A stretch of DNA of 49,909 bases from Promethearchaeia archaeon (GCA_029856125.1 JAHQWJ010000027.1:1-49909), one strand, 5' to 3'. Positions 10,978 through 36,142 are shown, counted from the stretch's first letter. The notes: a model not told the origin generated them from the sequence alone. Made by a program: numbers and translations.

Positions 10978-11066
10978 AATATTCTCTCTTCTTAAAAATC
11001 TCAATTCCTTGAGATGATTATAATCGTAAATTCGATACAATATTTAAGATTTTCAGTTTACTGAGG

Positions 11067-11834: not shown

Positions 11835-11889
11835 TTTTAAATTTTTTAAGCAATAATGAATGATTTTTTAGCAATAATTTATATGGGGA

Positions 11890-12648: not shown

Positions 12649-12710
12649 TTACTTCACATTTAAGTTTCTATATACAAAAAATGTTGTTATTTCCAGAAAA
12701 TTATATGTAC

Positions 12711-12759
12711 CTAAGTTTTATTATATTTAACAGCTTTGGTAGCATAATTTGTGGAAGGG
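12711..12759. promoter_or_regulatory. 49-nt block identical in both cassette copies, containing a minus-strand TATA (TTAAATATA)
   Basis: CTAAGTTTTATTATATTTAACAGCTTTGGTAGCATAATTTGTGGAAGGG at 12711-12759 and 17460-17508. Confidence 0.65.
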
Positions 12760-12952
12760 AGGGTGAATAATAGATTAATTTGATTAATATTTTTTTTAGA
12801 AAAAAAAATTACTTTAAAAAATTTGGATACTCATACTCAAGGTTAGGATACCTATAAAAAATTAATTAAGTAATGATTATTATTGATTTCCATATTATCA
12901 TAATAGAAATTTCTTTTAAGGAAAGAAGGTCTAATTTCGAATAAAAATTGAT

Positions 12953-14272: not shown

Positions 14273-14427
14273 AACCTGTTGATTAACTTAGAGAGTTCAC
14301 GAGTGTTTTTTAAATATAAGTCAGAAGCATAGTTCATTATTATTACTATTTAATTAATTTTAAAGGGATGTTCCCTCCAACTCTAAATTTTTTATTTTTT
14401 ACATTTTATTAAATGAAAAAACCCCCG

Positions 14428-15519
14428 TTAATGATATAATTTTCTGTGTTCAGGATCTAATGCATCAAATGTTTTCTTTGCCTCTTCAGGGGGAAGAACA
14501 ACGATAGTGCCATCTTCCTTTTGAACTACGCAACCAGAATTTTGAAGCAAGCGGTAATTTTCGTTAGTCTCCTTTGGATTCCCCCAACATACAATTTGAC
14601 AGTGTCCACAAGTAAATATCAAGTAATCTCCTAATTTTACGGTTTTATTTCCTATGAAGGGAACTTCATGTTTCTCTTCTATCTCCTTGTAGTCGTAAGA
14701 TTTGAAATCATCTCTCTTTGGTAATTTAAACCAGTTTTTTTGTGCACGAATCAGCGATTCTAACGCCTCACGCTTAGTTTTAGGTTGTTCATAGCGACCT
14801 GGGCTCCAAGTAGACCACTCTCCCGTTATATCTAAACCCGAATATCCTCCGCATACCAAATGACAACGTCCTTTATCAATTTTTTTAGCGTGGGTAAATG
14901 TATACCCTCCAATCTTTATTTCTACTTCTTCTTGATTATCAAAAGTCCTTAACGCACATACTTTTACACATACTTTACATTGATTACAAAACGACTCAGA
15001 CTCTGGAAGAGGATCCGTAGGTTTTAACTTTGCAGATGTTACAATTGCTCCTAACTCTAAGTTTGGGCCATAACCTTTTAAGCCTAAATTTCCGCTCCAA
15101 CCAAACAAACCAACGCCTCCTCTTACCGCTAAATATCTGAGAGAAATATCGGGAGGCAATTCGTATTTCCAATCTTCCAGCTCTTTTCTGTATTTAAAGT
15201 TTGACATAACCGGAAATGCTTCGAAGTCCTTTCTTCTTAATAACTCTGCAACTTCTTTAGAAATATCATAGGCTTTCATAGTAAGGTCGAATCGATCTTT
15301 CTCGTGATTATACCTACTATTCGGCTCTTTTTTTAAATAAGGGCGTATCAATTCTCGATTTAACGGGAGAGCGTAAGATATAGCAGATTGTGCTTCTGGT
15401 AGGACATATTTTATATCTGATCCTGGGGGACCTCCCTTTAGAGTTTCAAGTGTAGTAAATCCAACTTTTATTGCCCCTTTTCCTAAGAGAAAATTCTCCA
15501 ATTCTTCATTTAATGAAAT
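14428..15519 (-). CDS. Epoxyqueuosine reductase (QueG)/reductive-dehalogenase-like Fe-S cobamide protein; start TTG 15501 or ATT 15519
   Basis: ISLRYLAVRGGVGLFGWSG and GAIVTSAKLKPTDP family motifs; CxxCxxCxxxC plus split C...C...CxxCxxxC cluster ligands. Confidence 0.8.
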   Translation of the reverse strand: MSLNEELENFLLGKGAIKVGFTTLETLKGGPPGSDIKYVLPEAQSAISYALPLNRELIRPYLKKEPNSRYNHEKDRFDLTMKAYDISKEVAELLRRKDFEAFPVMSNFKYRKELEDWKYELPPDISLRYLAVRGGVGLFGWSGNLGLKGYGPNLELGAIVTSAKLKPTDPLPESESFCNQCKVCVKVCALRTFDNQEEVEIKIGGYTFTHAKKIDKGRCHLVCGGYSGLDITGEWSTWSPGRYEQPKTKREALESLIRAQKNWFKLPKRDDFKSYDYKEIEEKHEVPFIGNKTVKLGDYLIFTCGHCQIVCWGNPKETNENYRLLQNSGCVVQKEDGTIVVLPPEEAKKTFDALDPEHRKLYH

Positions 15520-15779: not shown

Positions 15780-15849
15780 TACATAATTAGAAATCGAATT
15801 TCTTTCAGTTTGTTTAATTCATTACGAAGCCCCTTGTTATCTACTGAAG

Positions 15850-16617
15850 TTACCGGTCCCAAGAAAAATGACTCCTTATAATTAGTAGTTCACCGGTTAT
15901 TCGATCAGATACGGGTGAAGCGAGAAAGAGAGCTAAATCTGCAATGTTTTCAGGAACGGGCGGACGTAATAATCGAGGAACAGTTGTATCCTCTTCATAT
16001 AGATCAGGTGTTAATACTCCCCATTTTATAACTCCTTTAGTAGCTGTCAAGCCTGGAGCAATGCAATTTACATTTATGTTATGTTCAGCCCACGAAGCCG
16101 CTAAATTCTTGGTTAACATTATGACCCCAGCCTTTGCTACTGAATAATGTAGCATTCCGGGAGAGCATTTAACTCCCGCTGTTGAAGCAATATTAATAAT
16201 CTTACCTTGTTTCTGCTCAATCATAACCTTACCTGCAGCAATACACCCTAAAAAAACGCCAGTGAGATTAAGGTTAATGATCTCATTCCACTCATCAATA
16301 GAAATCTCTTGTGGTTCTGTGGAGATCCCACGACCAGCATTGTTGACTATAATATCAAGATGTCCGAAACGATCTACAGTTTGTTTGATCATATTATCTA
16401 CTTGTTCGGGAACACAAACATCGGTGCTAATGGCAAGAGATTCCCTCCCAAGTTCTTTGACAGTTGTAGCAACCCTATCGATATATTTCTGTGTACGACT
16501 GGCAATTACAATACTAGCACCTTCCTTCGCAAAAGTCAAAGCGATACTTCTACCAATACCTCTAGAACCACCGGTTATTAAAGCAACTTTCCCATCTAAT
16601 ACTCCCATATTCTTCAC
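15850..16617 (-). CDS. SDR (paralog 3)
   Basis: TGGSRGIG, NNAG, YSVAK. Confidence 0.93.
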   Translation of the reverse strand: MKNMGVLDGKVALITGGSRGIGRSIALTFAKEGASIVIASRTQKYIDRVATTVKELGRESLAISTDVCVPEQVDNMIKQTVDRFGHLDIIVNNAGRGISTEPQEISIDEWNEIINLNLTGVFLGCIAAGKVMIEQKQGKIINIASTAGVKCSPGMLHYSVAKAGVIMLTKNLAASWAEHNINVNCIAPGLTATKGVIKWGVLTPDLYEEDTTVPRLLRPPVPENIADLALFLASPVSDRITGELLIIRSHFSWDR

Positions 16618-16638
16618 TTTTATTTTTTTATAGTGTGA

Positions 16639-17406
16639 TTAACGATCCCATTCAAAATGACTTCTTATAATTAATAGTTCACCAGTTATTTGATCAGATG
16701 CAGATGTAGCAAGAAAGAGAGCCAAATCTGCGATATTTTGTGGAATAGGAGGACGTAATAGTCGTGGTAATAGTGTACCATCTTCTCTTTTGTCAGAAGG
16801 TAATATCCCCCATTGTATTACTCTTTCAGTCAATGTAAAACCAGGAGCAATACAGTTTACATTTATGTTATGTTCCGCCCATGAAGCTGCTAAATTCTTG
16901 GTTAACATTATAACCCCTGCCTTTGCTACTGAATAGTGTAGCATTCCCGGAGACCCTACAACTCCAGCTGTTGAGGCAATATTGATAATCTTACCTTGTT
17001 TCTGCTCAATCATAACCCTACCAGCAGCGATACAACCAAGAAAAACACTTGTGAGATTGAGCTTAAGGACATGATTCCATTCTTTGATTGAAATCTCTAA
17101 TGGTTCTGTCGGAATGCCACGACCTGCGTTGTTGATCATTATATCAAGCCGTCCAAAATTATTTACTGTTTGCTTGACCATATTGTCTATCTGTTCCGGA
17201 ATCTTAACATCAGTGGCTATAGCAAGAGATTCTCCACCAAGTTCCTTGATTTCTTCAACAACTTTATCGAGATTCTCCTGTTTACGACTCGCAACTACAA
17301 CTTTGGCTCCTGCCTTGGCATATGTTAAAGCGATACTTTTACCAATACCGCTCGAACCACCAGTTATTAAGGCTACTTTACCATCTAATAATCTCATTTG
17401 TTTCAC
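16639..17406 (-). CDS. SDR (paralog 4)
   Basis: TGGSSGIG, NNAG, YSVAK. Confidence 0.93.
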   Translation of the reverse strand: MKQMRLLDGKVALITGGSSGIGKSIALTYAKAGAKVVVASRKQENLDKVVEEIKELGGESLAIATDVKIPEQIDNMVKQTVNNFGRLDIMINNAGRGIPTEPLEISIKEWNHVLKLNLTSVFLGCIAAGRVMIEQKQGKIINIASTAGVVGSPGMLHYSVAKAGVIMLTKNLAASWAEHNINVNCIAPGFTLTERVIQWGILPSDKREDGTLLPRLLRPPIPQNIADLALFLATSASDQITGELLIIRSHFEWDR

Positions 17407-17703
17407 TTTTTGGTATTTGTATACAATAACCAGTGATTTTTATAGAAAATTATATGTAACTAAGTTTTATTATATTTAACAGCTTTGGTAGCATAATTTG
17501 TGGAAGGGTGGGTAAATAATAGACTAATTTGATTAAAAATTTTTTTAGAAAAATAAAAATTACTAAAAAAAATTTGGATACTTTTACGCAGTGTTAGGAT
17601 ACTTAGAAAATATTTATTATGTAATTATTATTATTGATTTCCATATTAGCATAATACGAATTTCTTTTAAGGAAAGAAGGTCTAATTTCGAATATAAATT
17701 GAT

Positions 17704-19020
17704 GTGAATATAATGATAAAAGATTTTGGAGGAAAGGTCGCTGTAATTACGGGAGCGGCAAGTGGTATTGGGCGTGGACTTGCGTATGGATTTGCTAAAC
17801 AGGGGATGAATATTGTTCTAGCAGACATCGATAAAGAAAATTTAGTGAAAGTAGCAAAAGAACTTGAAGAAATAGGTATTGAGGTAATGACTCAATTAAC
17901 TGATGTGAGTGATCCAGAACAGGTGGCTCAATTAGCAGATGCTTCTTATAAACGTTTTGGGACGGTAAATATACTTTGTAATAATGCGGGAGTCGGAGGA
18001 GCTGGAAGCATTAGTTTAGTTACACTTGAAAATTGGAAATGGATTCTTGGTGTTAATGTCTTTGGCGTTATCCATGGTATTCAATATTTTTTAAACCGAA
18101 TGTTAGCAAGTAACGAACAGTGCCATATTGTTAATACTTCATCAATGGCAGGATTACTTTCAGGTGACAATTCATCATATCCAACCTCTAAATTCGCGGT
18201 AGTCGCGATTTCAGAATCTTTAGCTTTTGATTGCTTTAATACAAATGTAGGCGTATCTGTAGTTTGTCCTGGGCGTGTTAATACAAATATTATAAAAAAT
18301 ACATATACATTTAGACAAAACCGACCAGGCGTTTGGCTGCCACCAGCAGAAATGATTAAACAATCAGAAATTGGTAGGGAAAATCTGAATAGAATCTTGG
18401 CAGGAGCAATGACTCCAGAAAAATTGGCAGAATTAGTGATTAAAGCAATCAAAAATGACATATTTTATGTTTTAACTCATCCAGAATACATACCATTGGT
18501 AAAATCTCGGTTTGAGCGCATTAATGAAGATGCATTAAAATTGTATGAAGGAATTGAAATAAAAAGTGAACAAAAATCGAAAATCTTCAAAAATGATTCA
18601 CCTACTTTTTCCATAACCTACCCCGAAAGTTTTATAGAATTGAAACCAAATCCAATGAACCTTCCAGAAGTCAAACCAGTCTTTGTTGCCGCTAAAGAGC
18701 CCAGTATTGACCTTTTGATTTCTGTTATTAAATCTTCGAAGTATGGCCGACCATTAGATGAATCTGTAAATGAAATTGTAAGACGAATTGAGGATATAGC
18801 AAGAGAGATCAACATTAGTTCCAACGAACCAATAACTTTGAGAGACGGAACACCTGCTTATGAGAGTGTTATTGAATATAAATATCTAGGTATATTTCCA
18901 GTTAAAAGTATCCATCTTTCGGTTTTAAAAGATGAACATCTGATTGTTATTAGTATTTATGCCAATGCCAATTATTATAACGAAAATTTTAGAGATATTT
19001 TATATTCTCTTGAATTTTAA
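17704..19020 (+). CDS. SDR fused to a C-terminal PsbP/Mog1-like domain (copy 2)
   Basis: TGAASGIG, NNAG, YPTSK; aligns full length with 12953-14272. Confidence 0.88.
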   Translation: MNIMIKDFGGKVAVITGAASGIGRGLAYGFAKQGMNIVLADIDKENLVKVAKELEEIGIEVMTQLTDVSDPEQVAQLADASYKRFGTVNILCNNAGVGGAGSISLVTLENWKWILGVNVFGVIHGIQYFLNRMLASNEQCHIVNTSSMAGLLSGDNSSYPTSKFAVVAISESLAFDCFNTNVGVSVVCPGRVNTNIIKNTYTFRQNRPGVWLPPAEMIKQSEIGRENLNRILAGAMTPEKLAELVIKAIKNDIFYVLTHPEYIPLVKSRFERINEDALKLYEGIEIKSEQKSKIFKNDSPTFSITYPESFIELKPNPMNLPEVKPVFVAAKEPSIDLLISVIKSSKYGRPLDESVNEIVRRIEDIAREINISSNEPITLRDGTPAYESVIEYKYLGIFPVKSIHLSVLKDEHLIVISIYANANYYNENFRDILYSLEF

Positions 19021-19032
19021 TTAAAAACTTTT

Positions 19033-20715
19033 TTAAACTCCTTTAATCATACTAGAGATTTCATACTTAATTTTAATATCTATTACCGCAGGTTTTTCCG
19101 AATTTTTTGCGCGCTCTAAAGCAGGAAAAATTTCGTTAGGATCTACAACTTCCTCACCATAGCATCCAAAAGATTCAGCTATTTTTCCAAAATTGCAATA
19201 AGGCAAGTCTACGTCAATAAAACGACTATCAAAATCTACAACTTGACAACTCTTAATCATTCCCCAGGCAGAATTGTTCCCAATTATAAAGATTAGATTT
19301 TTCAATCCTAATCTAACTGCTGTTTCTAAATCTTGGATGTTCATCATGAAGCTCCCATCTCCACAGATAGCAATGACTTGTTTATCAGGTTTTCCTAATT
19401 TTGCCCCAATTCCGTAGCCTACGGATACACCAAGGTGTCCCATCCCAATTGCTTGAAGGTATGATAAGGGCTTCCGATCCTTATATAAGTTTATAGATTC
19501 TAATGCAAAAACAGTAAGGTCTCCTCCATCGGTGATTAAAATAGCATCCTCATCCATAAACTCATAAATTTCTTTAACCATTCTTACAGGATTAATCGGA
19601 ATTTCATCCTTGTTAGCTTTTCTTATAGAAGCTGCTTGATTTTTTTTTTTATTGGCAGCCAGAGTTTCCAACCAATCTCTTTTTTCAACTCGATTACTTT
19701 TTTTTAATTCTGCAAGTAATTGAGTTAAGTATTGTTTGCAATCAGCTACAATACCTAACGTTATTGGTTTTGATCTTCCAATTATGGATGGATCTATGTC
19801 AACATGTATTAATTTCTGTGAGTCCTTCCAAGCTGGTGGTTTTCCGAGCGCTAAGGTAAATGAAAATTTAACACCAAGGGCTAATACTACATCTGCTCCT
19901 GTTGAAGCTTGGGCTGAAGACAAACTTAAACCCCCAAGAGAACATTTAGAATTATTTGAAAGAGATCCTATTCCTCCAAGACTTGTAATAACAGGTATTT
20001 GTAAGTATTCAGCAAGCTCTTTTAACTCGTTCCATGCTTCAGCTCTTAAAACTCCGCCACCAGATACGATTAATGGTTTTTTGGCTGATAGTAGTAGTTC
20101 TAGAGATTCTTTTATTAAAGAAATATCTACAGCAGGTTTCTTTATTGCTCGATATTGATTAGAAGGCAAGATAGAAATTTGATCTTCTTCAATGGTATCA
20201 TAAAATGCATCCGAAAATATCTCCAAAACCACAGGTTGTGGTCGTCCACTGCTTACTTCTCGAAATATTTTATGTACAGCGTCTGGAATTTCTTCTATTC
20301 TTCTAATCGACTTTTGGTACTTTGTAATTGGTTTGAACAATGCAATTTGATCTAAATTACCTTGTAGTATGAAGGAATCTTCATGTTGAATGTTTACCTG
20401 TGGAATTATAGCAACTACAGGAACATTATCACTCCATGCAGTGCCTACTCCAGGTAAAAGATGTAAAGCTCCTGGTCCAACAGTCCCAAAACATACTCCA
20501 GGAGTATTAGTAACCCGGGCATAAGCATCAGCTGCATGGGCTGCGACTTGTTCATGACGAAATAGTACCGTATTAATTCCTTTTTCTCTACCCCATTGAT
20601 AAATAGCATCATACATTGGGAGGAGTTGACCACCAGGAATCCCAAACAAGTATTTTACCTTCTCTTCGAGGAGACACTTAATTAATATATCTCCACCATT
20701 TAATTTATTAGACAT
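19033..20715 (-). CDS. Thiamine-diphosphate-dependent enzyme (acetolactate synthase/lyase-like)
   Basis: RHE catalytic Glu, GPG, GDGS...NN ThDP-binding motif. Confidence 0.92.
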   Translation of the reverse strand: MSNKLNGGDILIKCLLEEKVKYLFGIPGGQLLPMYDAIYQWGREKGINTVLFRHEQVAAHAADAYARVTNTPGVCFGTVGPGALHLLPGVGTAWSDNVPVVAIIPQVNIQHEDSFILQGNLDQIALFKPITKYQKSIRRIEEIPDAVHKIFREVSSGRPQPVVLEIFSDAFYDTIEEDQISILPSNQYRAIKKPAVDISLIKESLELLLSAKKPLIVSGGGVLRAEAWNELKELAEYLQIPVITSLGGIGSLSNNSKCSLGGLSLSSAQASTGADVVLALGVKFSFTLALGKPPAWKDSQKLIHVDIDPSIIGRSKPITLGIVADCKQYLTQLLAELKKSNRVEKRDWLETLAANKKKNQAASIRKANKDEIPINPVRMVKEIYEFMDEDAILITDGGDLTVFALESINLYKDRKPLSYLQAIGMGHLGVSVGYGIGAKLGKPDKQVIAICGDGSFMMNIQDLETAVRLGLKNLIFIIGNNSAWGMIKSCQVVDFDSRFIDVDLPYCNFGKIAESFGCYGEEVVDPNEIFPALERAKNSEKPAVIDIKIKYEISSMIKGV

Positions 20716-20734
20716 TGAGTTTTTAAATGGAAAA

Positions 20735-20745
20735 TGTATATTTAA
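20735..20745 (-). promoter_or_regulatory. TATA box (TTAAATATACA) 20-30 nt upstream of the ThDP-enzyme ATG, consistent with a leaderless transcript
   Basis: Motif and spacing to the start codon at 20715; no SD seen. Confidence 0.55.
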
Positions 20746-20906
20746 CTTTGAGTTTTGATTTGTGTTGAATTTTATTATTAATTAGAGTAGGAACACATAT
20801 TATAAATCTTCAAAGCAATAAAATAACTATTAAATTTTAAAAAATTATATTCATTTATAAATTCTAATTTAAGAATTAATTTTTATGTAATAGAAGAGGA
20901 TTATCT

Positions 20907-21818
20907 ATGGAATTTGGTGTCCAGATAAATAATTATTTAACTTCATGGGAAAGTATTCTTGCCACAATTAAAACTGTGGAGTCAGGACCTTGGTCCAGTC
21001 TTTGGGTCTCGGACCATTTTTTCCCTCCAGTTGGAGACAACGTAGAGCATAAAGAGGCATTAGAGGCGTGGTCACTGATTACAGCAGCAGCTACCGTCAC
21101 CAAACGCTTAAGGTTAGGTGTTCTTGTAACAGGCAATACCTACCGCAATCCAGCGTTGTTAGCGAAAATGGCGGCAACTGTGGACCAAATCTCAAACGGT
21201 CGCCTAATCCTTGGTATCGGAGCAGGTTGGTATGAACGAGAGCACGAGGCGTTCGGTTGGAAGTTTCCAAGTACTAAGGAGAGAAGCGATCGTCTAGAAG
21301 AGGCAGTAGAACTTATTAAACTGTTATTTACAGCTAATGGTCCTGTTAGTTATGAGGGACAGTATTACAAGCTTAAGGATGCGTATTTTTCACCTCCCTG
21401 TACGCAAAAACCTCATTTACCAATTTTAATAGGGGGTAATGGTGAGAAACGAACATTAAGAACCTTGGCAAAGTTTGGAGATATTTGTAATCTTGATTTT
21501 AACGCACCAGGATCCCCCGAAATCTTTAGACGCAAAATTGAAATACTAGAGCGCCATTGTGAAGAATTTGGGCGCGATCCTAATGAAATAAAGAAGACTT
21601 TACATATGCCCATTCATCTAGAAAATGATGAAAAAAAAGCTATAAAATACCGTAAAATACGCGGGGAATGGACGTTAACAGGTTCTGCTTCTTTTATAAT
21701 TAATCGCATCCAAGAATATTTGGATGTTGGTGTGGAAGAATTCATGTTTGGGAGCGTTCCATCCAAAGCAGAACTATATGAGCGACTAAATAATGAAATA
21801 CTCTCAGCATTTTTCTAA
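20907..21818 (+). CDS. LLM-class F420-dependent oxidoreductase
   Basis: SDH, RLGVLVTGNTYRNPALLAKMAATVDQISNGRLILGIGAGW, GGNGEKRTL; GAGG SD upstream. Confidence 0.92.
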   Translation: MEFGVQINNYLTSWESILATIKTVESGPWSSLWVSDHFFPPVGDNVEHKEALEAWSLITAAATVTKRLRLGVLVTGNTYRNPALLAKMAATVDQISNGRLILGIGAGWYEREHEAFGWKFPSTKERSDRLEEAVELIKLLFTANGPVSYEGQYYKLKDAYFSPPCTQKPHLPILIGGNGEKRTLRTLAKFGDICNLDFNAPGSPEIFRRKIEILERHCEEFGRDPNEIKKTLHMPIHLENDEKKAIKYRKIRGEWTLTGSASFIINRIQEYLDVGVEEFMFGSVPSKAELYERLNNEILSAFF

Positions 21819-21856
21819 AGCTAAATAAAGAAATTTATTTTCAAACTTAATTGAAA

Positions 21857-24328
21857 TTAATATGAACCATGTACCGTTCGATCGATGATACTATCTTGAA
21901 CTAACTCAGGCAACTCAACAAATCGAGCGACATACCCAGCAACTCTCACCATTAAGTCCTTGTATTTTTCAGGCTCTTTCTGAGCAGCCTTTAACGTATC
22001 TGATGAAATCACATTAAACTGGATGTGATGTATTTTCTGGTCGACAAAAACTCTTATTAGATCAGCAAACCTTTTGAAGCCATAATCTTCCTTGAACATC
22101 ACTGGATCTAGTCTCATATTGCAGGAAATTCCTGCGAAAACCTCGGCGTGGTTGATCTTACCTACTGACTTGAAAACCGCAGTGGGACCACTAACAGCGC
22201 TACCTTTAGTGGGCGCGAGTGAATCTGCGAGCGGTTTCGCATTTAATCTTCCAGAAGGGAGCGCTCCCACGGCCTCACCAGCCCTGACGTAGCTACTTAA
22301 AGGTATATGAACCGGGATTTTATGACCACCACGCGTATTTTTTTGTTTTATTGCTTCTTGAGCGAAAGTGTGCATTACCCACGCTGTTTGTTCATCGGCA
22401 TAGTCGTTGTCATTTCCAAACTTAGGGACCTTTAACAACATTTGGCGTAGATCGTCGTACCCTTCGAAATTCTTCTCCAAAGCGTCGCACAGCTGATCGA
22501 TAGTAATCTTTTTTTCTTCAAACACAAGCTTCTTTATGGCGGTCAGGGAATCACCAACATCAGTAACACCAACGCATGATACGAACGGCCCAAAATTAAA
22601 ACGAGCTCCACCTTCTTCTCTACATAACCCTTTTTCAATGCAGTCCTCTATGAGCGATGATTGATATATAGTTGGATCGTATTCAGCCAGAAGCCTCTCA
22701 CCGATATTCGTGGCAATTGTCTCCATTTCGAATCCCCATACAAGTTGTTTTCTAAACGCTTCTAGTAATTCTTCAAAGGATTCGAATTCCCGAGGATCCC
22801 CTGTTTTAGGCGCTGTTATTCCTTCGAGCCAGCCCCTCCTGCCATTTGTCAACACCGATATTAAGACTCCTGGAAGTATTGGGATGTAAACGGAGGTGCA
22901 ATATCCAGATTCCATACCAGCTAAAGTTGGCTCAGCGCACCCCATTGCACTAGCCTTTCTGGCTATCTCCAGTGTTATTGGTTTCTCTCCACCTAATGTC
23001 CCTCGGCCAAGGAGATTAACAATAAAGTTATCATGATTGAGAAATTCAGGATGACCCGTTCCAAGTGCACAAAGCTGACAAGCCTTAATGAGGAGATCTT
23101 CAGGTGTTCTACTGTGAAGCAAGATACCTACATCAGGTTCTACTAATCTGGTATGCATCATACCTTCGAGAATCATGTATGACAGTTCATTAGTAGCATC
23201 AGTTCCATCTGCTCTGAGACCCCCTACATCAACATGCTGTGCAATTCCGGCAGTATCCGTTAGAAGATAACCTTTTTTGGAGTTTAAACTATAAAGAAAC
23301 CATGAAGGTCTTAGAAGGAAGCAATCAATAAGTTCCTGTACCTCATTTTTGGTAATTCTCCCCTCTCTTATATCGGCTTCATAGTAAGGATACAGATACT
23401 GATCCATTCTTCCAGGACTGATGGATGCAACATCGCGGATTTCCCACCAATGAAGGATATGTGAAAACCAGATTGATTGTATCGCTTCGTAGAATGTTCT
23501 CGCGGGATTTGCGGGTACCCAATCGCACACTTCAGCTATTTTGAGTAATTCAGCCTTCCTTTTGGTATCTACTTCCTTTTCGGCTAATTCTCTTGCCCTA
23601 GTAGCAAAACGCTTACCGATGGAAGCTGCGGCTTCCATAACCATAATCACACCTTCAAGGAATGGAATTTTTTTAACCTCTTCAGGATTGGTGCTATCGA
23701 TCCTTCCCAGTCTTTCCTCAGCATCCTTCTTTATTCCCAAAAATCCCTTTTTCAATACTTTTTCATTATTGGGAATGAAGTGACCAATATGCCAATATGC
23801 CATCGTTCTACTCTCATTATACCACCTTTCAGGAGTAAATCCCTCAGGAACTGGCTTGTAATGAGCAGGATCATGGCGCGTTCTTTCCCAATTGCCTTGC
23901 CCCTTCCAGTAGGGAATAATTTCCTCTTTTAATTCTCGCATCTGTTCTGGGGTAATTAAAACTGGATTACGTTCTCGACTACTAATAACATCGAGATAAT
24001 TTTCTAGATTAGGGTCACTTCTCACAGGAAGTGGGCAGTTGTTTGGTATAGGATCATACCAACCTACTAAAAGCTCATCTGGAAAGATGTCGATGGGTAA
24101 CTCTCTAACTATGGTTTGAAAGAGCTTCGCTTTGCGGGTTACCATTGGTTCTCCTTCTGTTTCCTTCATAACCCTTACTTCAATGCGATCTCTATCAATT
24201 GAGTAAACGAGTTTGCGGTTGATATAGCGTTGCCTATGTCTCTCAATTCTTTGAGTTGGTTGTACAGTCAACACCCTTTCTAACAAGGTTTTTGTTTTTT
24301 CTGCTGCTTTTTCTACACTCTGCACCAT
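21857..24328 (-). CDS. Glycyl radical enzyme (PFL2/eliminase-like clade), substrate unknown
   Basis: C-terminal RVAGY glycyl-radical motif, Cys loop MGCAEP, SPGRMDQYL, PKFGND; 823 aa. Confidence 0.93.
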   Translation of the reverse strand: MVQSVEKAAEKTKTLLERVLTVQPTQRIERHRQRYINRKLVYSIDRDRIEVRVMKETEGEPMVTRKAKLFQTIVRELPIDIFPDELLVGWYDPIPNNCPLPVRSDPNLENYLDVISSRERNPVLITPEQMRELKEEIIPYWKGQGNWERTRHDPAHYKPVPEGFTPERWYNESRTMAYWHIGHFIPNNEKVLKKGFLGIKKDAEERLGRIDSTNPEEVKKIPFLEGVIMVMEAAASIGKRFATRARELAEKEVDTKRKAELLKIAEVCDWVPANPARTFYEAIQSIWFSHILHWWEIRDVASISPGRMDQYLYPYYEADIREGRITKNEVQELIDCFLLRPSWFLYSLNSKKGYLLTDTAGIAQHVDVGGLRADGTDATNELSYMILEGMMHTRLVEPDVGILLHSRTPEDLLIKACQLCALGTGHPEFLNHDNFIVNLLGRGTLGGEKPITLEIARKASAMGCAEPTLAGMESGYCTSVYIPILPGVLISVLTNGRRGWLEGITAPKTGDPREFESFEELLEAFRKQLVWGFEMETIATNIGERLLAEYDPTIYQSSLIEDCIEKGLCREEGGARFNFGPFVSCVGVTDVGDSLTAIKKLVFEEKKITIDQLCDALEKNFEGYDDLRQMLLKVPKFGNDNDYADEQTAWVMHTFAQEAIKQKNTRGGHKIPVHIPLSSYVRAGEAVGALPSGRLNAKPLADSLAPTKGSAVSGPTAVFKSVGKINHAEVFAGISCNMRLDPVMFKEDYGFKRFADLIRVFVDQKIHHIQFNVISSDTLKAAQKEPEKYKDLMVRVAGYVARFVELPELVQDSIIDRTVHGSY

Positions 24329-24577
24329 TTATAAGACCTTTTTCAAAATTTAATATGATGTAAAAAATTCTATTGTAGATATATATATCTAAGGAATAAA
24401 AATTTTTAAATGTATAGTGTATATTTTATTACGATTTCAATATATTTCATTATAATACCTATATGGAAAAACGAAAGGATTAGATACTACCACTTTTAAC
24501 TTCTGATTTGAAAGATTATAAATAAAGAAACATTCATAAATACTAAATTTGTTAAAATTGCTTAGATTGAGTAAGGT

Positions 24578-26665
24578 ATGAGTACTAAAACTGTTCGAAC
24601 TATCTGTTTTGATTGTCATTCCCGTTGCGGTGTGCTTCTCGAAGTTAAAGACGGAAAAATCATTGGAGTGAAAGGAGACACGGACCATCCCATAAGTCAC
24701 GGATATATGTGTCCAAAAGGGAGGGCATGCATGGAAATTATATACCATCCTGAACGGCTCACTAAACCTTTGATAAGTGTAGGGGAACGAGGAGAAGGGA
24801 AGTTTAAGGAAGTATCTTGGGATGAAGCTCTTGATGTTATAGCTAAAAAACTTCTTAAAACGCGAGAAAAATACGGGGCTGAATCTGTCGTATTCGGTCA
24901 AGGTACAACGAGAGGTATGCCACCCTGGATTTACCGCTTTATGAGTCTATTTGGGACACCTAATTTCATGTCTGCTGGTCACATGAGTGGTGCTCCTATA
25001 GCCCTTGCAAGTTCTCTCACCGCTGGATTTGGAATACTCGATCCTGACTATGGGAATAGTAAATGCATATTGTTGTGGGCACATAATCCTGAAAAATCAT
25101 ACCCCGGAATTTATAATTATTTCCTTAGAAAAGGTTTAAAAGCAGGAGCTAAACTCATTGTAGTTGATCCTAGGGGTAATTCATATACGCGTAAAGCAGA
25201 TCACTGGCTCCCCATTAGACCAGGGACTGATGTTGCGCTAGCACTTTGTTTTATCAATGTAATTATAGAAAATGAGCTGTACGACAAGGAATTCGTGGAA
25301 AAGTGGACTGAAGGATTTGATCAGTTGAAGGATTGTGCCTCAGAATTTACCTTGGAACGAGTTGCTGAAATAACATGGCTATCACCTGAAGAGATAAAAG
25401 CAGCAGCGATCACCTATGCTACAACAGGACCTGCTGCGATGGGTCCTGGTCCTGGTGGTGCTTGCCAATCAATTAATGTTTTCGATCTCACACGCTCACT
25501 CACTATTTTAGCGGCGATTACCGGAAATTTAGACATTAAAGGAGGAAATGTAAGTCACGTACCTCCAACAAAAGCGCGGAGTTGTTATGGGGGTGATTAT
25601 CAATATGAAAACGCCTTATCACCAGAACAATCAAAGAAAAAAATAGGTCGTGATAAATTTCCAGGCTTACGTTTTACAGGAATGTCAGTCACTCCTGAAT
25701 TAGTATGGGACGCGATTCTTAAGGGAGACCCGTATCCTGTTAAAGCTATTGGATTATTCGCTACTAATCCTATGTGCGCATATGCTAATTCTAAGCATGT
25801 TAAAGAAGCTTTAAGCGCTCTAGAATTTCTATTTTCCGTGGATTATTTTCATACACCTACCACAAAAATGGCAGATGTCGTGCTTCCAGCAGCGCATTGG
25901 ACTGAAAGAGATGATATTGAAGATTTGAGCATGAAAAACCATGTTTTCTGCCAAGTAAAAGCAGTAGAACCTATCCCAGAATGTCGTTGCGAAAAAGAGA
26001 TCTTAGTTGACCTTGCTAAAAAAATGGGTCTTACAGATTATTGGCAGTCGGTCGAAGAATCTCTTAATTATCGATTGGAACCTATCGGGATGACATTTGA
26101 GGAATTTAAAAAGGTCGGAAAATATTCTCTTCCCATGAAATACAAATTGTATGAAAAAAGGGGTAGATTTAATACTCCATCGGGTAAAATCGGTTTATGT
26201 CCTAAATATTTTGAAGAATGGGATTTAGATCCTATACCTGCGTATAAAGAACCACCAGAAAGCCCTGTTAGTACCCCTGATCTATGGAAGGAATACCCTC
26301 TTGTATTAACTACAGGGAGGAGAATCTTATCCTATTATCATTCCTCACTTCGAAATATCCCCTCTCTTAGAAAGAATGCTCCAGATCCAGAACTTGAAAT
26401 ACATCCTGATACATGTAAAAATCTAGGAATAGAAGACGGAGAGTGGGTTCATTTGGTTTCACCAAGAGGTAAAGTTGAGGCTAAAGTTAAGTATTTTGAG
26501 GAGACACATCCAAAAATCGTACACACACCTCATGGGTTCTGGTATGGAAGAGAAGATGGGTGGGAAAAGTTAAACATTAATCAAATCACAGACGATGGCC
26601 CGAAGGATTCAATAACAGCTTCAGTATCAACAAAAGCTCTTTTATGTCGGGTCGAAAAAATGTAG
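24578..26665 (+). CDS. Mo/W-bisPGD oxidoreductase (DMSO reductase superfamily, acetylene-hydratase-like subfamily)
   Basis: N-terminal CxxCxxxC-x27-C [4Fe-4S] motif, IRPGTD, ADVVLPAA, C-terminal molybdopterin-binding domain; no Tat signal seen. Confidence 0.9.
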   Translation: MSTKTVRTICFDCHSRCGVLLEVKDGKIIGVKGDTDHPISHGYMCPKGRACMEIIYHPERLTKPLISVGERGEGKFKEVSWDEALDVIAKKLLKTREKYGAESVVFGQGTTRGMPPWIYRFMSLFGTPNFMSAGHMSGAPIALASSLTAGFGILDPDYGNSKCILLWAHNPEKSYPGIYNYFLRKGLKAGAKLIVVDPRGNSYTRKADHWLPIRPGTDVALALCFINVIIENELYDKEFVEKWTEGFDQLKDCASEFTLERVAEITWLSPEEIKAAAITYATTGPAAMGPGPGGACQSINVFDLTRSLTILAAITGNLDIKGGNVSHVPPTKARSCYGGDYQYENALSPEQSKKKIGRDKFPGLRFTGMSVTPELVWDAILKGDPYPVKAIGLFATNPMCAYANSKHVKEALSALEFLFSVDYFHTPTTKMADVVLPAAHWTERDDIEDLSMKNHVFCQVKAVEPIPECRCEKEILVDLAKKMGLTDYWQSVEESLNYRLEPIGMTFEEFKKVGKYSLPMKYKLYEKRGRFNTPSGKIGLCPKYFEEWDLDPIPAYKEPPESPVSTPDLWKEYPLVLTTGRRILSYYHSSLRNIPSLRKNAPDPELEIHPDTCKNLGIEDGEWVHLVSPRGKVEAKVKYFEETHPKIVHTPHGFWYGREDGWEKLNINQITDDGPKDSITASVSTKALLCRVEKM

Positions 26666-26683
26666 ATGGATTTTTAAAAGATA

Positions 26684-27589
26684 TTATCCACCAATTTGAG
26701 CCTTCATACCACAAGACTCAACAAGTTTCTTTAATTTTTTAATGTGTTCTTCGCTCGGAGGTTCGATATCCTTGAGTTCATATTCTCTACCAAGTTGCTC
26801 ATAAGTGCCGGTTCCAAACTTATGATAAGGCAAAAGATCAATTCTTAGAAGGTTTTCTCCCAATTCAGCAGCAAACTTTCCCGTTTTTAGTAAATTCTCT
26901 TCAGAATCGTTTAGTCCTGGTATTAAAGGAATGCGTATTATAATAGGTCGCATTTCAGAAGCTTTTCTAGCATTCTCTAAGATAATTTCGTTTGGAACCC
27001 CCGTAATTTCTTTGTGGATATTTGAATCCATGTGTTTAATATCGATATAGAGGAGATCTATATGTTCAAGGATTTCCTCCAAAAATTCCCATTTTACGTA
27101 ACCACAGGTTTCCATTGCTGTGTGTACGTAAGTTTCTTTACATTTCTTAAGTAGAGCTGTAACAAATTTATGTTGCATTGTAGGTTCGCCTCCCCCAATC
27201 GTGACCCCTCCGCCTGATCTTCTGTAAAAATTACTATCCTTCATTACGTCTTGGAATAATTCTTCCACCGTTCTTAGCTCTCCTACAAGTTTTAAAGCTT
27301 TGTTAGGACAGGCATCAACGCATTGACCACATGAATTGCAAAGCTTTTTGTTTATCTCTATTTCTTCCTTATCGGAGAATGTAATCGCTTTCTCTGGACA
27401 TACATCAACACAGCGCAGAGAATTTTTACAATTCGTCTTAATATAGAGTAAATCAGTTGAAAACTTCTGCGTTTGGGGCGAAGAACACCATAAACATTTA
27501 AGCGGACATCCCTTCATGTACACTAAGGTTCTTATTCCTGGACCATCATGGATAGCAAACCTCTGAATGTCGTAAACTAGTCCTTTCAT
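26684..27589 (-). CDS. Glycyl-radical enzyme activating protein (radical SAM with ferredoxin insert)
   Basis: HDGPGIRT, GCPLKCLWC, ferredoxin insert CKNSLRCVDVC / CNSCGQCVDAC, GGGEP. Confidence 0.95.
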   Translation of the reverse strand: MKGLVYDIQRFAIHDGPGIRTLVYMKGCPLKCLWCSSPQTQKFSTDLLYIKTNCKNSLRCVDVCPEKAITFSDKEEIEINKKLCNSCGQCVDACPNKALKLVGELRTVEELFQDVMKDSNFYRRSGGGVTIGGGEPTMQHKFVTALLKKCKETYVHTAMETCGYVKWEFLEEILEHIDLLYIDIKHMDSNIHKEITGVPNEIILENARKASEMRPIIIRIPLIPGLNDSEENLLKTGKFAAELGENLLRIDLLPYHKFGTGTYEQLGREYELKDIEPPSEEHIKKLKKLVESCGMKAQIGG

Positions 27590-27644
27590 CTCTCTATATC
27601 TATAACCTTTCTGTGCGAGGATTCTATCCGATTTTTAATTAAGT

Positions 27645-27658
27645 AAAAAAAAAAAAAA
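27645..27658 (-). terminator. T14 tract immediately after the LLM stop codon
   Basis: 14 consecutive A on the + strand adjoining the stop at 27661. Confidence 0.55.
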
Positions 27659-27660
27659 TG

Positions 27661-28575
27661 TTATTTGAAAGTAGACAATATTTCTACTTCTATTTGCTCA
27701 AAAAACTCTGGTTTAGACAAAACACCGCTTAAAATAATCTCTTCGGCACCAGCGTCAATAAATTGTTGAATACGGTCAATTATAAATGGTACGGTTCCAT
27801 ATAAAGCCCAATCTCCACGTCGTTCGCGAAGTGCTTCAGCTTCTTTTTCATCTTTCTCAATTCGTATTGGTATCACCATCGTCTTCTTAATATCTTTTGA
27901 ATTGCGGCCGACATCTTCACAATGCCGCTCAAGCACTTCGATTTTATGTTGAAACATTTCAGGTGTCCCGGGTTTATTAAAGTCTATATTTGCAATATCA
28001 CCGAATCGAGCGAGCGTACGTAAAGTTCTTTTCTCTCCGTTTCCACCAACCATAATTGGAAGATGCGGTTTTTGCGTACAGGGGGGAGAAAAATAGGCAT
28101 CGTGAAGTTTATAGTATTGACCATTATAATTGATCGGGCCATCCACCGTAAATAGCATTTTAATTAGCTCTACAGCTTCTTCCAGACGATCGCTTCTCTC
28201 TTTAACTCCTGGAAATTCCCAACCGAAAGCCTCGTGCTCTCGCTTATACCAACCGGCTCCGATTCCAAGAATAAGCCGACCATTCGAGATTTGGTCTACG
28301 GTTGCTGCCATCTTTGCTAACAAAGCTGGATTGCGGTAAGCGTTGCCTGTTACAAGAATACCTAATCTTACTCTTTCTGTAACAACAGCAGTTGCTGTGA
28401 TCATTGACCAGCTCTCTAACGCTTCCTTGTCCTCCCAATTAGCCTTTGGATAAGGTGGTAGGAAATGATCCGAAAAGAAGAGGCTGGACCAAGGTCCTGC
28501 ATCTATATGTTTAATCGCCGAAAGCGTTTCTTTCCAAGTAGTAAAATAATTTAATAATTGCGCTCCAAATTGCAT
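27661..28575 (-). CDS. LLM-class F420-dependent oxidoreductase (paralog of 20907-21818)
   Basis: Same motifs; long identical stretches such as YRNPALLAKMAATVDQISNGRLILGIGAGWY and DAYFSPPCTQKPHLPI. Confidence 0.92.
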   Translation of the reverse strand: MQFGAQLLNYFTTWKETLSAIKHIDAGPWSSLFFSDHFLPPYPKANWEDKEALESWSMITATAVVTERVRLGILVTGNAYRNPALLAKMAATVDQISNGRLILGIGAGWYKREHEAFGWEFPGVKERSDRLEEAVELIKMLFTVDGPINYNGQYYKLHDAYFSPPCTQKPHLPIMVGGNGEKRTLRTLARFGDIANIDFNKPGTPEMFQHKIEVLERHCEDVGRNSKDIKKTMVIPIRIEKDEKEAEALRERRGDWALYGTVPFIIDRIQQFIDAGAEEIILSGVLSKPEFFEQIEVEILSTFK

Positions 28576-28656: not shown

Positions 28657-30039
28657 TTAAAGATTGTTGGGATGCAAAAACTTCTTAAAACGTTCCGCTT
28701 GTGTTAAAGTTCTTTTCGAGAGATTATGTATTGACTTATCATTCCATTCCTTAAGACCTGGAATTATTTCACCTCGAATAAAACGCTTCACATATGACGG
28801 AATTAATTTCTGACCTAAATATGCACCAACAATGGCTCCTGCGTTTCCTGCATTACAATCAGTATCAGCTCCACATTCAGTACTAATACGTACCGTCTGT
28901 ATAAAATCCCCATCTCCATATAATAAACCCATTACAATTGCAGCATTATTGAATAAGGTATGAACAGCTTTACTTTTTCTAAGGGGCTTTAATCGTCTTT
29001 CAAGCATACTCGGAAAATCCTTAAATCTGGAAATTGCATCTTTAATCATATCTTGCTCAAACAGCCACCATAGACCATCTAAAGTTTTTTGCCAATCTTT
29101 TTTATTCGAAGCCGTCCAGTGTTTTCCCAAATCTCTTGAATCTGGATTATCGATATAAATATCGATTACTGGATCAATAAATTTAAAGTATAACTTAACG
29201 TCTTCTGTTGAAATTGAATCTATTAAGGAAGCATATTCTAACAAGACTGCTTTTATACGTTTAATATCGCTTATAATAGTCTCAGAACAAATCCCAATCT
29301 GATCAATTTGTTCCGTAAATCCATCAAATTTTTCAGTTTGTGCCCCCTCAAGGTCCCATTTATAAACTTCAGACTTTGGAAATTTTATCTCTTCTCTATA
29401 TTTGAATGGATCGTGTGTTATTGCTACTGAAATTATGGCGGAGATAAATAATTCACCCACAATTCCTACCTCTCTATGAGCAATCAACGCATCTTGAAGG
29501 GATAAATCCAAACATGGTTTTAATAATTCGAGATCATCTTTGGAATTTTCGTACCAACCCCATGCAGGAAGTAACATTCCATATAATTCTCCCTTCATTT
29601 GTGCTCCAATCCAATCAGCATATTCGTTCCCAAAAACTTTTCCCTCATGCTCATAAACATAATCACCAGCATGTTCCCAAGGAACACCATTTTTAGCGTT
29701 ATCGTAAGCAGATTTTTCTGCTGTAAATACATATTGAGGGAGTAAATGCTCCAACCAATACGATCCAAGATAGTTTGGTTCCAAAATTGTCCCAGCTTTT
29801 AACCTATTAGCAAAATCATCATCACTTAATGCTTCTAATGCTAAAATAGATATCAATTCATATTGTTCATCGTCGTTTATACCTTGTCTATGATGCTTGC
29901 TCCATCCACTTAAAGGAGGGTGCATATTAATAATTACCTCACGATGTTTTCCTTCGACAGGCATCCCAAATGTGCCCCCTGCGACTTTTCCTGTCCAGCT
30001 GCCCCAAATTTTTTGGAGTAAAAAATCTTTTTCAGACAT
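28657..30039 (-). CDS. ADP-ribosylglycohydrolase family protein
   Basis: GSWTGKVAG..FGMPVEG, NDD and DTDCNAG..GAIVG metal-binding motifs. Confidence 0.85.
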   Translation of the reverse strand: MSEKDFLLQKIWGSWTGKVAGGTFGMPVEGKHREVIINMHPPLSGWSKHHRQGINDDEQYELISILALEALSDDDFANRLKAGTILEPNYLGSYWLEHLLPQYVFTAEKSAYDNAKNGVPWEHAGDYVYEHEGKVFGNEYADWIGAQMKGELYGMLLPAWGWYENSKDDLELLKPCLDLSLQDALIAHREVGIVGELFISAIISVAITHDPFKYREEIKFPKSEVYKWDLEGAQTEKFDGFTEQIDQIGICSETIISDIKRIKAVLLEYASLIDSISTEDVKLYFKFIDPVIDIYIDNPDSRDLGKHWTASNKKDWQKTLDGLWWLFEQDMIKDAISRFKDFPSMLERRLKPLRKSKAVHTLFNNAAIVMGLLYGDGDFIQTVRISTECGADTDCNAGNAGAIVGAYLGQKLIPSYVKRFIRGEIIPGLKEWNDKSIHNLSKRTLTQAERFKKFLHPNNL

Positions 30040-30226: not shown

Positions 30227-31921
30227 TTAATCCGCGTCTTCTATGTCCTCTACTCCTTTTGGTGGATTGACACACCAAATATAGTGACCTTCCTCAATCT
30301 TTATTTTATGAGGTGTCTCAACTTCACATTCTTCTGTTCGATTATCTGATACACATCGAGGATTAAAAGCACATCCCGGTGGAGGAGCAATTGGGCTTGG
30401 AACCTCGCCATCTATAACATGTTTAACATCCTGATCAAAAGGATCAATTTCAGAGCGACTCTTTAGTAGCGCTTGAGTATAAGGATGAGTTGGATTTAAA
30501 AAGATTTGATCAGTTTCTCCAACCTCAACCAACTTACCGAGATACATTACCGCAACTCTATTCGCAATATGATTCACAACGGCTAAATTATGGGTTATAA
30601 ACAAGAAACCATATCCATATTCCTCCTGTAAGTCGATGAGAAGGTTTAAGATTTGTGCTTGTACAGACACATCAAGGGCTGATGTCGGCTCGTCAAGGAC
30701 AATCAATTCTGGATTACACGCAAGTGCTCTTGCGATAATAATTCTTTGTTTTTGCCCTCCTGAAAACTCGTGAGGATAACGATCCATGTGTTCTCGTTTT
30801 AACGAAACTTGTTCCAACAATCTTAAAACATGTTTTCTGATTTGCATCTTGTTAGTAATACCCAGCAAATTCTTAAGGGGTTCTGCTATAATACTTGTAA
30901 CTTTTAAACGTGGATTTAAAGAAGCATCAGGATCTTGGAAAATAATTTGAATTTTTTGCCTTAAATAACTTGAAAGATCGTCCGGGACGGGTTCCTCATG
31001 AAATAATATTTCTCCTTCTTCTTTTTGTAGTAATCCTAAAATTGTGTTTGCGACAGTCGTTTTCCCGCAACCGCTTTCTCCAACTAATCCTAATGTTTCA
31101 CCTGTTTTAATTTCAAAAGATAATCCATCAACCGCTTTTACATCCCCAACTTTTCTTTTAAGTGTCCCCTTAAGTAAAGGAAAATATACCTTAAGGTTTC
31201 TTACTTCTAATAAGGGCTTACCCCTTTCTAAAACATGGTGTTCTCTGAGTTCCTGATTTGATATTGTTTTATATGCGATTCTTCTAGCTACAACCATTGT
31301 TATAGCTGATAATATAAGACTTATCATGAAATTTTGAAGAAAATTATCAAAATAATTTACTTGTTGAGAGACAAACATTGTTAATAGATAGAGAGTCCCT
31401 GGTATTATACTGACAATAATAACTACTCTTCTTAACTTTACTAGTTGAAGTTTATCTCCCCAACTTGATATAAATACTGTAACACCTGTAGCAGTAAGAA
31501 TCAATAAAACAAAAACAAATTTTGCTCCATCTAATTGAGGATTATCAACAATAAGGAAAATTTCTATAATATCATAAAGTAAAGTCAAAAAAATAGAAGT
31601 TATGAATAAAGAGATTTGAGCTAGTCCTACAATTTCTAATGATTTTAACCAATTATTTTTGTAAATGATTTGCATGGTAATTAATCCAACAAAAATGTTG
31701 ACAATTATTATGGGAAGGTCGTTGAAAAGATTTTGAGTAACTAGCGAATAAAGAGTTAACTCTAAAATTATGCTTATAACAATCCAAATTATATTTATAA
31801 TTAATGTTGAAAAAGATGCTCTATCCCATCTTTCCAAGTGGATATGCCAGTTTATATAATAGAATCCCACTAAGAACAAGATAATTTGAGAAAAAAACAG
31901 TGATGCTATATTAACAACCAT
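30227..31921 (-). CDS. oppF: Oligopeptide/dipeptide ABC ATPase (OppF-like) with ~7-TM N-terminal domain
   Basis: Walker A GESGCGKT, FSGGQKQR, LIVLDE, HPYT, C-terminal Cys-rich tail; first ~215 aa are hydrophobic helices. Confidence 0.9.
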   Translation of the reverse strand: MVVNIASLFFSQIILFLVGFYYINWHIHLERWDRASFSTLIINIIWIVISIILELTLYSLVTQNLFNDLPIIIVNIFVGLITMQIIYKNNWLKSLEIVGLAQISLFITSIFLTLLYDIIEIFLIVDNPQLDGAKFVFVLLILTATGVTVFISSWGDKLQLVKLRRVVIIVSIIPGTLYLLTMFVSQQVNYFDNFLQNFMISLILSAITMVVARRIAYKTISNQELREHHVLERGKPLLEVRNLKVYFPLLKGTLKRKVGDVKAVDGLSFEIKTGETLGLVGESGCGKTTVANTILGLLQKEEGEILFHEEPVPDDLSSYLRQKIQIIFQDPDASLNPRLKVTSIIAEPLKNLLGITNKMQIRKHVLRLLEQVSLKREHMDRYPHEFSGGQKQRIIIARALACNPELIVLDEPTSALDVSVQAQILNLLIDLQEEYGYGFLFITHNLAVVNHIANRVAVMYLGKLVEVGETDQIFLNPTHPYTQALLKSRSEIDPFDQDVKHVIDGEVPSPIAPPPGCAFNPRCVSDNRTEECEVETPHKIKIEEGHYIWCVNPPKGVEDIEDAD

Positions 31922-31978
31922 TTCGACTTATCCTTCCATTTTTGTTTTACGCTTTAATTTTGGATTCTGTAATTGATC

Positions 31979-34006: not shown

Positions 34007-34009
34007 TTT

Positions 34010-35011: not shown

Positions 35012-35038
35012 TTTTTAAATCATTATTATAATTAATTT

Positions 35039-36103: not shown

Positions 36104-36142
36104 TTTATTACCCCTCCTTCTTTTATAATTACTCTTTTTTGC

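Follow-up and report, generated by a model that had tools for sequence, protein, structure and literature searches.

Which of the genes around a glycyl radical enzyme (GRE) in an Asgard archaeon act together with it, and what chemistry might they carry out? The question is raised by a locus on contig C27 (JAHQWJ010000027.1) of a Promethearchaeia archaeon (GCA_029856125.1), whose assembly of 3.69 Mb is 99% complete. The complete contig, 49,909 bp long, was analyzed and is called the window here; the names of its protein hits put it among the Asgard archaea (Promethearchaeia). An earlier note on this DNA had singled out six genes as a candidate anaerobic radical pathway: a thiamine diphosphate (ThDP) enzyme (19033-20715, minus strand, 560 amino acids), a luciferase-like monooxygenase family (LLM) oxidoreductase, LLM1 (20907-21818, plus strand), the GRE (21857-24328, minus strand, 823 amino acids), a molybdenum or tungsten (Mo/W) enzyme (24578-26665, plus strand, 695 amino acids), a GRE activase (AE; 26684-27589, minus strand, 301 amino acids) and a second LLM, LLM2 (27661-28575, minus strand). 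All six open reading frames (ORFs) are intact, their placement and orientation were borne out, and Pfam and NCBIfam confirmed their families.

The pairing of the GRE with an F420-type LLM appears to be a real module that has not been described before, and the proposed five-enzyme pathway is only partly supported. The explanation that we favor, as a tentative one, is that the locus may be part of a horizontally mobile catabolic island of Asgard archaea, whose core would consist of a GRE of the Cys-x-Glu (CXE) type, its activase and the F420-type oxidoreductase LLM2. This core is the best-supported unit. Recurring with it as helpers are short-chain dehydrogenases/reductases (SDRs) of the short type, a two-domain vicinal oxygen chelate (VOC) protein, crotonases, enzymes of CoA activation and an Opp-type ABC importer, joined at several loci by an aldehyde:ferredoxin oxidoreductase (AOR).

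A GRE of predicted eliminase/isomerase type

The GRE matches the domains PF02901 and PF01228 (the latter at 7e-28) and carries a complete glycyl fingerprint (RVAGYVARFVELPELVQDSIIDR, residues 795-817), all positions of which agree with the pattern RVxG[FWY]x6-8[FL]x4Qx2[IV]x2R taken from a 2026 review of GREs (PMC13450708). Gly798 lies within RVAGY (codon 21935-21937). The active-site loop has a single cysteine and reads GCAEP, giving the motif Cys464-x-Glu466 (22931-22939); over the GRE clade the cysteine is invariant and the glutamate nearly so. The same CXE motif is kept by 1,2-eliminases and GRE isomerases (PMC13450708). His183 is conserved and aligns with His164 of glycerol dehydratase (GDH), and the position of GDH Asp447 is occupied by threonine. 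Because the fingerprint is complete and the Cys-x-Glu loop is present, we classify the enzyme by its sequence as an eliminase/isomerase-type GRE, one that falls outside every characterized isofunctional group.

This placement supports the earlier note, whose proposal would have been undercut had the GRE fallen in a characterized cluster. No NCBIfam equivalog passes, all falling far under their cut-offs: the best are HpsG (543 bits), HypD (531 bits) and CutC (502 bits), against cut-offs of 1000-1100 (1000 for HpsG), and membership in the HpsG, HpfG, HypD, CutC, IAD, HPAD and PFL families is thereby ruled out. In the PDB, the highest scores are those of CutC, GDH and HypD (473-484 bits), with no solved structure above 484. 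Among PFL-like GREs, those with characterized functions are all bacterial, and entire clades lack experimental validation (PMC13450708).

The activase is a radical SAM protein that scores 362 bits against TIGR02494 (cut-off 174), with the CX3CX2C motif CPLKCLWC at residue 28 and a ferredoxin-like insert, CNSCGQCVDAC. It closes a minus-strand run made up of the ABC importer, an ADP-ribosylglycohydrolase-family protein (ARH), LLM2 and the activase itself; the unit thus extends beyond the block that the earlier note had delimited. The activase is 71-79% identical to its counterparts in L004, L005 and L028, loci in which the flanking GRE and Mo/W genes are 85-96% identical; this greater divergence suggests either faster evolution or replacement by recombination.

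The genome encodes six GREs and only three activases. It has no match to the microcompartment shell domain PF00936 anywhere in its 99% complete assembly, which rules out a microcompartment-associated GRE and upholds what had been noted for the window. Large GRE expansions are seen in Asgard genomes, with up to 15 first-look candidates per genome. At one locus, L002 (JGI Ga0073583_1317516), at least five full-length GRE paralogs lie within about 20 kb, adjoining an AOR and a CoA ligase, and the array also holds a 56-amino acid stand-alone glycyl-radical-domain ORF.

Recurrent pairing with an F420-type oxidoreductase

Both LLMs exceed the TIGR03560 cut-off of 231.4 bits (LLM1, 250 bits; LLM2, 236.5 bits). 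They are 68% identical and bracket the block pointing inward, as the close paralogs that the note took them for, with LLM1 convergent with the GRE. Among the solved structures most closely related to LLM1 are those of the F420 enzymes Adf, Mer and Fgd, and the F420 biosynthesis proteins CofD, CofH and CofE each pass their cut-offs in this genome, making use of F420 by the LLMs plausible.

GRE orthologs at least 75% identical are rare and were found in four of the 400 species genomes of the phylum (G000, G192, G236 and G228). An LLM adjoins the GRE in the window and in L004, L005, L006, L027, L028, L008 and L001. The LLM2 type is the one that accompanies the GRE at every related locus, and its orthologs adjoin the GRE in L004, L005, L008 (two copies) and L001; LLM1 is confined to loci with a GRE at least 85% identical. 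The order LLM2-AE-Mo/W-GRE-LLM1-ThDP-long SDR-SDR is found whole in L004 (GRE 85% identical) and in L005 of G192 (94%), and in fragments on L027 and L028. The cluster of G236 is broken up at contig ends: the GRE contig stops after the first 152 Mo/W codons, and AE-LLM2-ABC opens another contig.

More distant loci are arranged differently. L008 of G228 (GRE 78%) reads ABC importer-LLM-LLM-GRE-VOC-SDR-crotonases, and L001 (GRE 75%) reads histidine phosphatase-LLM-GRE-SDR-crotonase-crotonase; both are without Mo/W, AE, ThDP and LLM1-type genes, the activase having been either deleted in this subclade or inserted in the other branch. At still lower identity, two family III CoA-transferases on L034 (55% GC; GRE 52% identical) are followed by an LLM that diverges from the GRE and then by an Opp-type ABC importer. 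L037 (54% GC; GRE 51% identical) has an MFS transporter, a sulfotransferase, an LLM, a cupin protein, a pair of SDRs, the GRE and a VOC protein. These two high-GC contigs are probably bacterial, and their GREs belong to a radiation at 47-56% identity. A search of 209 genomes of one bacterial order, to which locus L011 had led, gave no GRE at E<=1e-200, and a metagenome scan with the clade alignment A1 gave no GRE loci at 58-64% identity.

The check proposed in the note, for co-occurrence of the genes elsewhere, gives a divided answer. The LLM does travel with the GRE, in diverged Asgard loci as well as on a high-GC, probably bacterial contig; the ThDP and LLM1 genes are found only near GREs at least 85% identical, and the Mo/W gene was lost in one subclade. 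Several recurrent partners had been missed, namely SDRs, VOC proteins, crotonase and other CoA enzymes, and the ABC importer. As for novelty, the earlier note knew of no described GRE pathway with F420 LLM enzymes and an acetylene-hydratase-like enzyme. Our literature search, mostly of titles and abstracts, also turned up no GRE cluster with F420/LLM or acetylene-hydratase partners, and the 2026 review (PMC13450708) makes no mention of F420, luciferase or the string "molybd-" and describes no LLM next to a GRE.

The Mo/W enzyme

The Mo/W enzyme is cytoplasmic and of the bis-molybdopterin guanine dinucleotide (bis-MGD) type, with matching Pfam domains and an N-terminal CxxCHxxC [4Fe-4S] motif (CFDCHSRC); it has neither a Tat signal nor a partner subunit. 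The CxxCH motif is invariant in all 18 aligned family members. Its best PDB match is acetylene hydratase (2E7Z, 1.8e-108), and it had been called acetylene-hydratase-like. This label was weakened by residue alignment, which places His14 (24617-24619) at the position of the catalytic Asp13 and Ser137 (24986-24988) at that of the tungsten ligand Cys141, so that both catalytic hallmarks are missing and an acetylene hydratase function was rejected. Serine occupies the ligand position in all relatives at least 58% identical, which come from Desulfobacterota, Spirochaetota, Hodarchaeota and Thorarchaeota, and cysteine is found only in a clade at 43-45% identity. Since the two replacements are kept in relatives at least 58% identical, acetylene hydration would be unexpected. 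The nearest characterized relatives of acetylene hydratase include catechol dehydroxylases (PMC7028382).

Outside the GRE clade, Mo/W relatives keep other company. Those at 61-62% identity in other Asgard genomes neighbor genes for a Ras-like GTPase and a tetratricopeptide repeat (TPR) protein, a sulfatase, pyruvate:ferredoxin oxidoreductase or an MFS transporter, and bacterial relatives at 53-57% neighbor Old Yellow Enzyme (OYE) flavoproteins, acyl-CoA dehydrogenases (ACADs), SDRs and CoA ligases. No GRE, AE or LLM was seen near the 53-62% relatives in the other Asgard and bacterial genomes examined. The 209 genomes of one bacterial order contain only two Mo/W homologs. In two bacterial genomes (loci L123 in G497 and L124 in G413), Ser-ligated members adjoin OYE-type flavoproteins, one of them fused to a pyridine-nucleotide-disulfide-reductase domain, along with ACADs and AMP-forming CoA ligases. 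The bacterial neighbors hint that the Ser-ligated family may act in CoA-ester metabolism or in that of aromatic or alicyclic acids.

Loci without a Mo/W gene retain traces of one. In-frame relics of its 3' end, 28-30 codons long including the stop codon and 64-86% identical at the amino acid level, lie between LLM and GRE, just 3' of each LLM (L008:8520-8603, L008:9817-9906 and L001:7386-7469); the L008 relic has been doubled along with its LLM. In the GRE tree, L001, L008 and L029 form a single subclade that is sister to the Mo/W-bearing one. Because of these relics and the placement of the subclade, we conclude that the Mo/W gene was ancestral to the GRE clade at 75% identity or more and was later deleted in one subclade, with LLM and GRE retained. 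We therefore regard it, on this comparative evidence, as an ancestral, co-transferred and dispensable neighbor.

The GRE and Mo/W genes diverge from an intergenic region (24329-24577) of 249 bp, 212-249 bp over the aligned loci. A six-locus alignment shows two conserved AT-rich promoter-like blocks, one at each gene end, separated by a variable, indel-bearing stretch and kept in the five related loci. A shared divergent promoter had been suggested here, and the divergent arrangement is borne out. The blocks would fit two divergent archaeal promoters, which does not imply shared regulation.

GC content and horizontal transfer

The impression that the block is richer in GC than its surroundings was confirmed by measurement: positions 20907-28575 have 39.9% GC compared with 32.7% for the genome, a significant difference. 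The GRE gene itself, at 42.6%, is in the top 0.07% of 2.4-kb genome windows, and the other five GRE paralogs have 34-37%. For the pair G000 and G192, members of two different genera, identity is 94% for the GRE, 94% for the Mo/W enzyme, 89% for LLM1 and 91% for the ThDP enzyme, as compared with 71% for elongation factor 2 (EF-2); for G236, which is of the same genus as G000, the values are 82% for EF-2 and 85% for the GRE. Taken together, these inter-genus identities, the GC anomaly and the patchy distribution show that the block was transferred recently between Asgard lineages. The sister sequences of the Asgard GRE clade are labeled Dehalococcoidia and Desulfobacterales.

We also observed that four Asgard genomes examined (L119-L122) have two EF-2 paralogs each, both under the aEF-2 equivalog cut-off.

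The ThDP enzyme and further neighbors

The ThDP enzyme diverges from LLM1 across a 191-bp spacer, in keeping with the earlier description. It belongs to the acetolactate-synthase-like superfamily, with matches to the three TPP domains; all NCBIfam equivalogs are under cut-off, and its best PDB matches are BbmA, acetohydroxyacid synthase (AHAS), oxalyl-CoA decarboxylase and glyoxylate carboligase at 225-248 bits. Papers were sought on BbmA, the top match, and the hits were all spurious. Its gene is found only in relatives with a GRE at least 85% identical. The ThDP enzyme and LLM1 are thus additions specific to one subclade.

On the other side of the block, the ARH gene (28657-30039, minus strand; PF03747) lies upstream of LLM2 and AE and is kept in L004, L005 and L006. 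It is followed by the Opp/Dpp-type ABC importer (30227-39221). The minus strand encodes two ATPases, two permeases and a 172-amino acid ORF of this unit, and the plus strand its family-5 solute-binding protein (36897-39221). The importer is syntenic with the GRE in L004, G236 (L111) and G228 (L008/L117), and an Opp-type ABC importer flanks the GRE on L034.

Toward the start of the contig lie genes on the minus strand for a histidine-phosphatase-fold protein, the two-domain VOC protein and two short SDRs (9260-12648, assigned by Pfam); histidine-phosphatase, VOC or SDR partners are found near the GRE in L004, L005, L006, L008, L001 and L037. Genes for an AMP-forming CoA ligase, a crotonase, an AOR, a zinc-dependent alcohol dehydrogenase (Zn-ADH) and an ACAD (1430-9083) are candidate downstream steps. 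In L001 and L117/L118, too, the GRE has crotonases and a CoA ligase in its vicinity, and an AOR adjoins related GREs in L002, L023, L045 and L058.

A tandem segmental duplication of about 3.2 kb (11059-14280 and 15842-19032; 83.5% nucleotide identity) comprises, in each copy, two short SDRs and one long SDR of 438 amino acids. The copies are separated by a 357-amino acid protein with a weak Fer4 match (14428-15501), which in L006 lies between the GRE and LLM1. The far end of the contig holds a GH32 fructosidase-like gene, two serine beta-lactamase-fold genes and a MUG113/T5orf172 (GIY-YIG-like) ORF (39306-41024, 43094-44164, 47255-49087 and 49180-49638); of these, the beta-lactamase-fold genes and the MUG113 gene show synteny with the L001 flank as well.

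Proposed pathway and alternative explanations

In the mechanism that we propose, a small hydroxylated substrate would be imported by the Opp-type ABC transporter, and the activase, with S-adenosylmethionine (SAM), would install a radical on Gly798 that moves to Cys464. By analogy with characterized eliminases and isomerases, the Cys464 thiyl radical would then take a hydrogen atom adjacent to a hydroxyl group, and Glu466, possibly with His183, would aid a 1,2-elimination or ring opening, with an aldehyde or ketone as the product. LLM2, using F420/F420H2, and the SDRs could interconvert alcohol and carbonyl in F420- and NAD(P)-dependent reactions, a role that falls to NAD-linked dehydrogenases in bacterial GRE pathways, and the AOR, CoA ligase, crotonases, ACAD and VOC protein might process the resulting acid as a CoA ester. 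For a subset of substrates, the Mo/W enzyme could play an accessory part, in a (de)hydroxylation or a redox step.

Several observations weigh against this explanation. Much of the synteny comes from close, non-independent relatives, and the CoA-dependent genes are tied to the pathway by proximity alone. With mostly monocistronic genes in alternating orientation, co-regulation would be conjectural. Other Asgard genomes have LLM orthologs at 70-75% identity at eight sites that lack a GRE within about 10 kb, indicating that the LLM family is not dedicated to GREs, and since the TIGR03560 margins are just 5-19 bits, the choice of F420 over FMN by the two LLMs is a presumptive one.

A first alternative is a mobile island of independent catabolic genes, in which only the GRE and activase belong together and the other neighbors co-travel or sit in an accessory region rich in paralogs. 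The many paralogous oxidoreductases and the 3.2-kb duplication in the region fit this picture, as do the alternating, mostly monocistronic units, the patchy clade (four of 400 phylum genomes) and the presence of the LLM and Mo/W families in unrelated contexts; with six GREs to three activases, activation in trans would be normal in this genome. We consider it possible, if doubtful, because LLM-GRE adjacency reappears at 52% identity on a contig of 55% GC, again with an Opp-type ABC importer, and SDR and VOC genes recur in at least three differently arranged loci. The opposite extreme is the original proposal, a single pathway in which the GRE with its activase, the Mo/W enzyme, the two LLMs and the ThDP enzyme would work one after another on a single substrate, through radical elimination, F420 redox steps, (de)hydration or dehydroxylation by the Mo/W enzyme, and C-C cleavage by the ThDP enzyme. 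The window, L004 and L005 do have the complete set in conserved order, and L006 of G236, L027 and L028 have part of it; the Mo/W, GRE, LLM1 and ThDP genes are the most similar (89-94%) in the inter-genus transfer; the Mo/W gene is ancestral to the GRE clade at 75% or more; GRE and Mo/W have a conserved divergent control region in common; and the catechol dehydroxylases among the nearest characterized relatives of acetylene hydratase (PMC7028382) would suit a dehydroxylation. We nonetheless think a six-gene sequence unlikely: the loci with the full set are so closely related as to amount to about one observation, L008 and L001 are without ThDP and LLM1, the subclade that deleted its Mo/W gene left LLM and GRE intact, and the 53-62% Mo/W relatives, with no GRE, AE or LLM nearby, sit among OYE, ACAD, CoA ligase, sulfatase and GTPase genes.

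Asgard GREs have also been named Ass/Bss (PMC8163825), and the GRE could on this basis be a hydrocarbon activator resembling alkyl- or benzylsuccinate synthase, with the ACAD, crotonase, SDR and CoA-transferase genes forming a bbs-like beta-oxidation; in gene content, the ACAD, crotonase, CoA ligase and SDR pair near the GRE resemble the known bbs clusters, as do the two CoA-transferases of family III on L034. The GRE itself makes this very improbable. The X-succinate synthases TutD and MasD score 276 and 301 bits against it, compared with 473-484 bits for eliminases, and the glutamate of the eliminase/isomerase CXE motif is present. As had been remarked earlier, no Bss/Hpd-type iron-sulfur small-subunit ORFs flank the GRE gene; there is no room for them beside it, and the activase scores under the cut-off of the BssD-type model. 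The CXE loop, the pattern of similarity and the lack of small subunits together make an Ass/Bss-type function unlikely, and membership among the X-succinate synthases was rejected.

The mobile island with a GRE, activase and LLM2 core remains our preferred explanation. A bolder version of it, which we judge a speculative and rather improbable one, would make this the first archaeal GRE catabolic pathway, run on F420 and not on NAD. The full form of this pathway would draw in a new type of Mo/W enzyme, Ser-ligated, as well as a ThDP lyase, and would degrade a sediment compound new as a GRE substrate, on an island that spreads among Asgard archaea and from Chloroflexota- or Desulfobacterota-like bacteria. 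The locus is a defined and testable candidate: its GRE is intact and has an activase of its own, and the few partners that recur with it narrow the search for a substrate. Coupling of a GRE to F420-dependent hydride transfer, if true, would give radical eliminase pathways a new kind of redox wiring and would add a catabolic capability to marine-sediment Asgard archaea. The Ser/His variant of the acetylene hydratase clade, which is widespread among Desulfobacterota and Asgard archaea, merits study for its own sake.

Comparison with known systems

The GRE shares its fold and domains with GRE eliminases and isomerases (GDH 1R8W, CutC, HypD 6VXC, PD, IslA/HpsG and YbiW/PflD), as well as the glycyl fingerprint, the single cysteine with the CXE glutamate and the equivalent of GDH His164; these enzymes likewise have an activase with a ferredoxin-like insert. 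It differs in its cysteine loop, which is GCAEP or GCNEP in this clade and GCVEP in known eliminases and isomerases. Unlike known eliminase loci, this one has no microcompartment and no adjacent CoA-acylating aldehyde dehydrogenase, its partners are F420-type LLMs, SDRs, VOC, AOR and CoA enzymes, and its host is an archaeon. The only structurally characterized archaeal GRE, Archaeoglobus fulgidus PFL2/PflD (2F3O), is PFL-like, debated in function and probably acquired from bacteria; it scores merely 378 bits against the GRE of the window and so belongs to a different clade.

Both LLMs lie above the cut-off of the TIGR03560/Rv1855c family of F420-dependent LLMs, in a genome with F420 genes; the family carries no assigned substrate. 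The Mo/W enzyme resembles acetylene hydratase of Pelobacter acetylenicus in that both are monomeric and cytoplasmic, without a Tat signal, and have N-terminal [4Fe-4S] and bis-MGD domains, and departs from it in having His14 for the catalytic Asp13 and Ser137 for the tungsten ligand Cys141.

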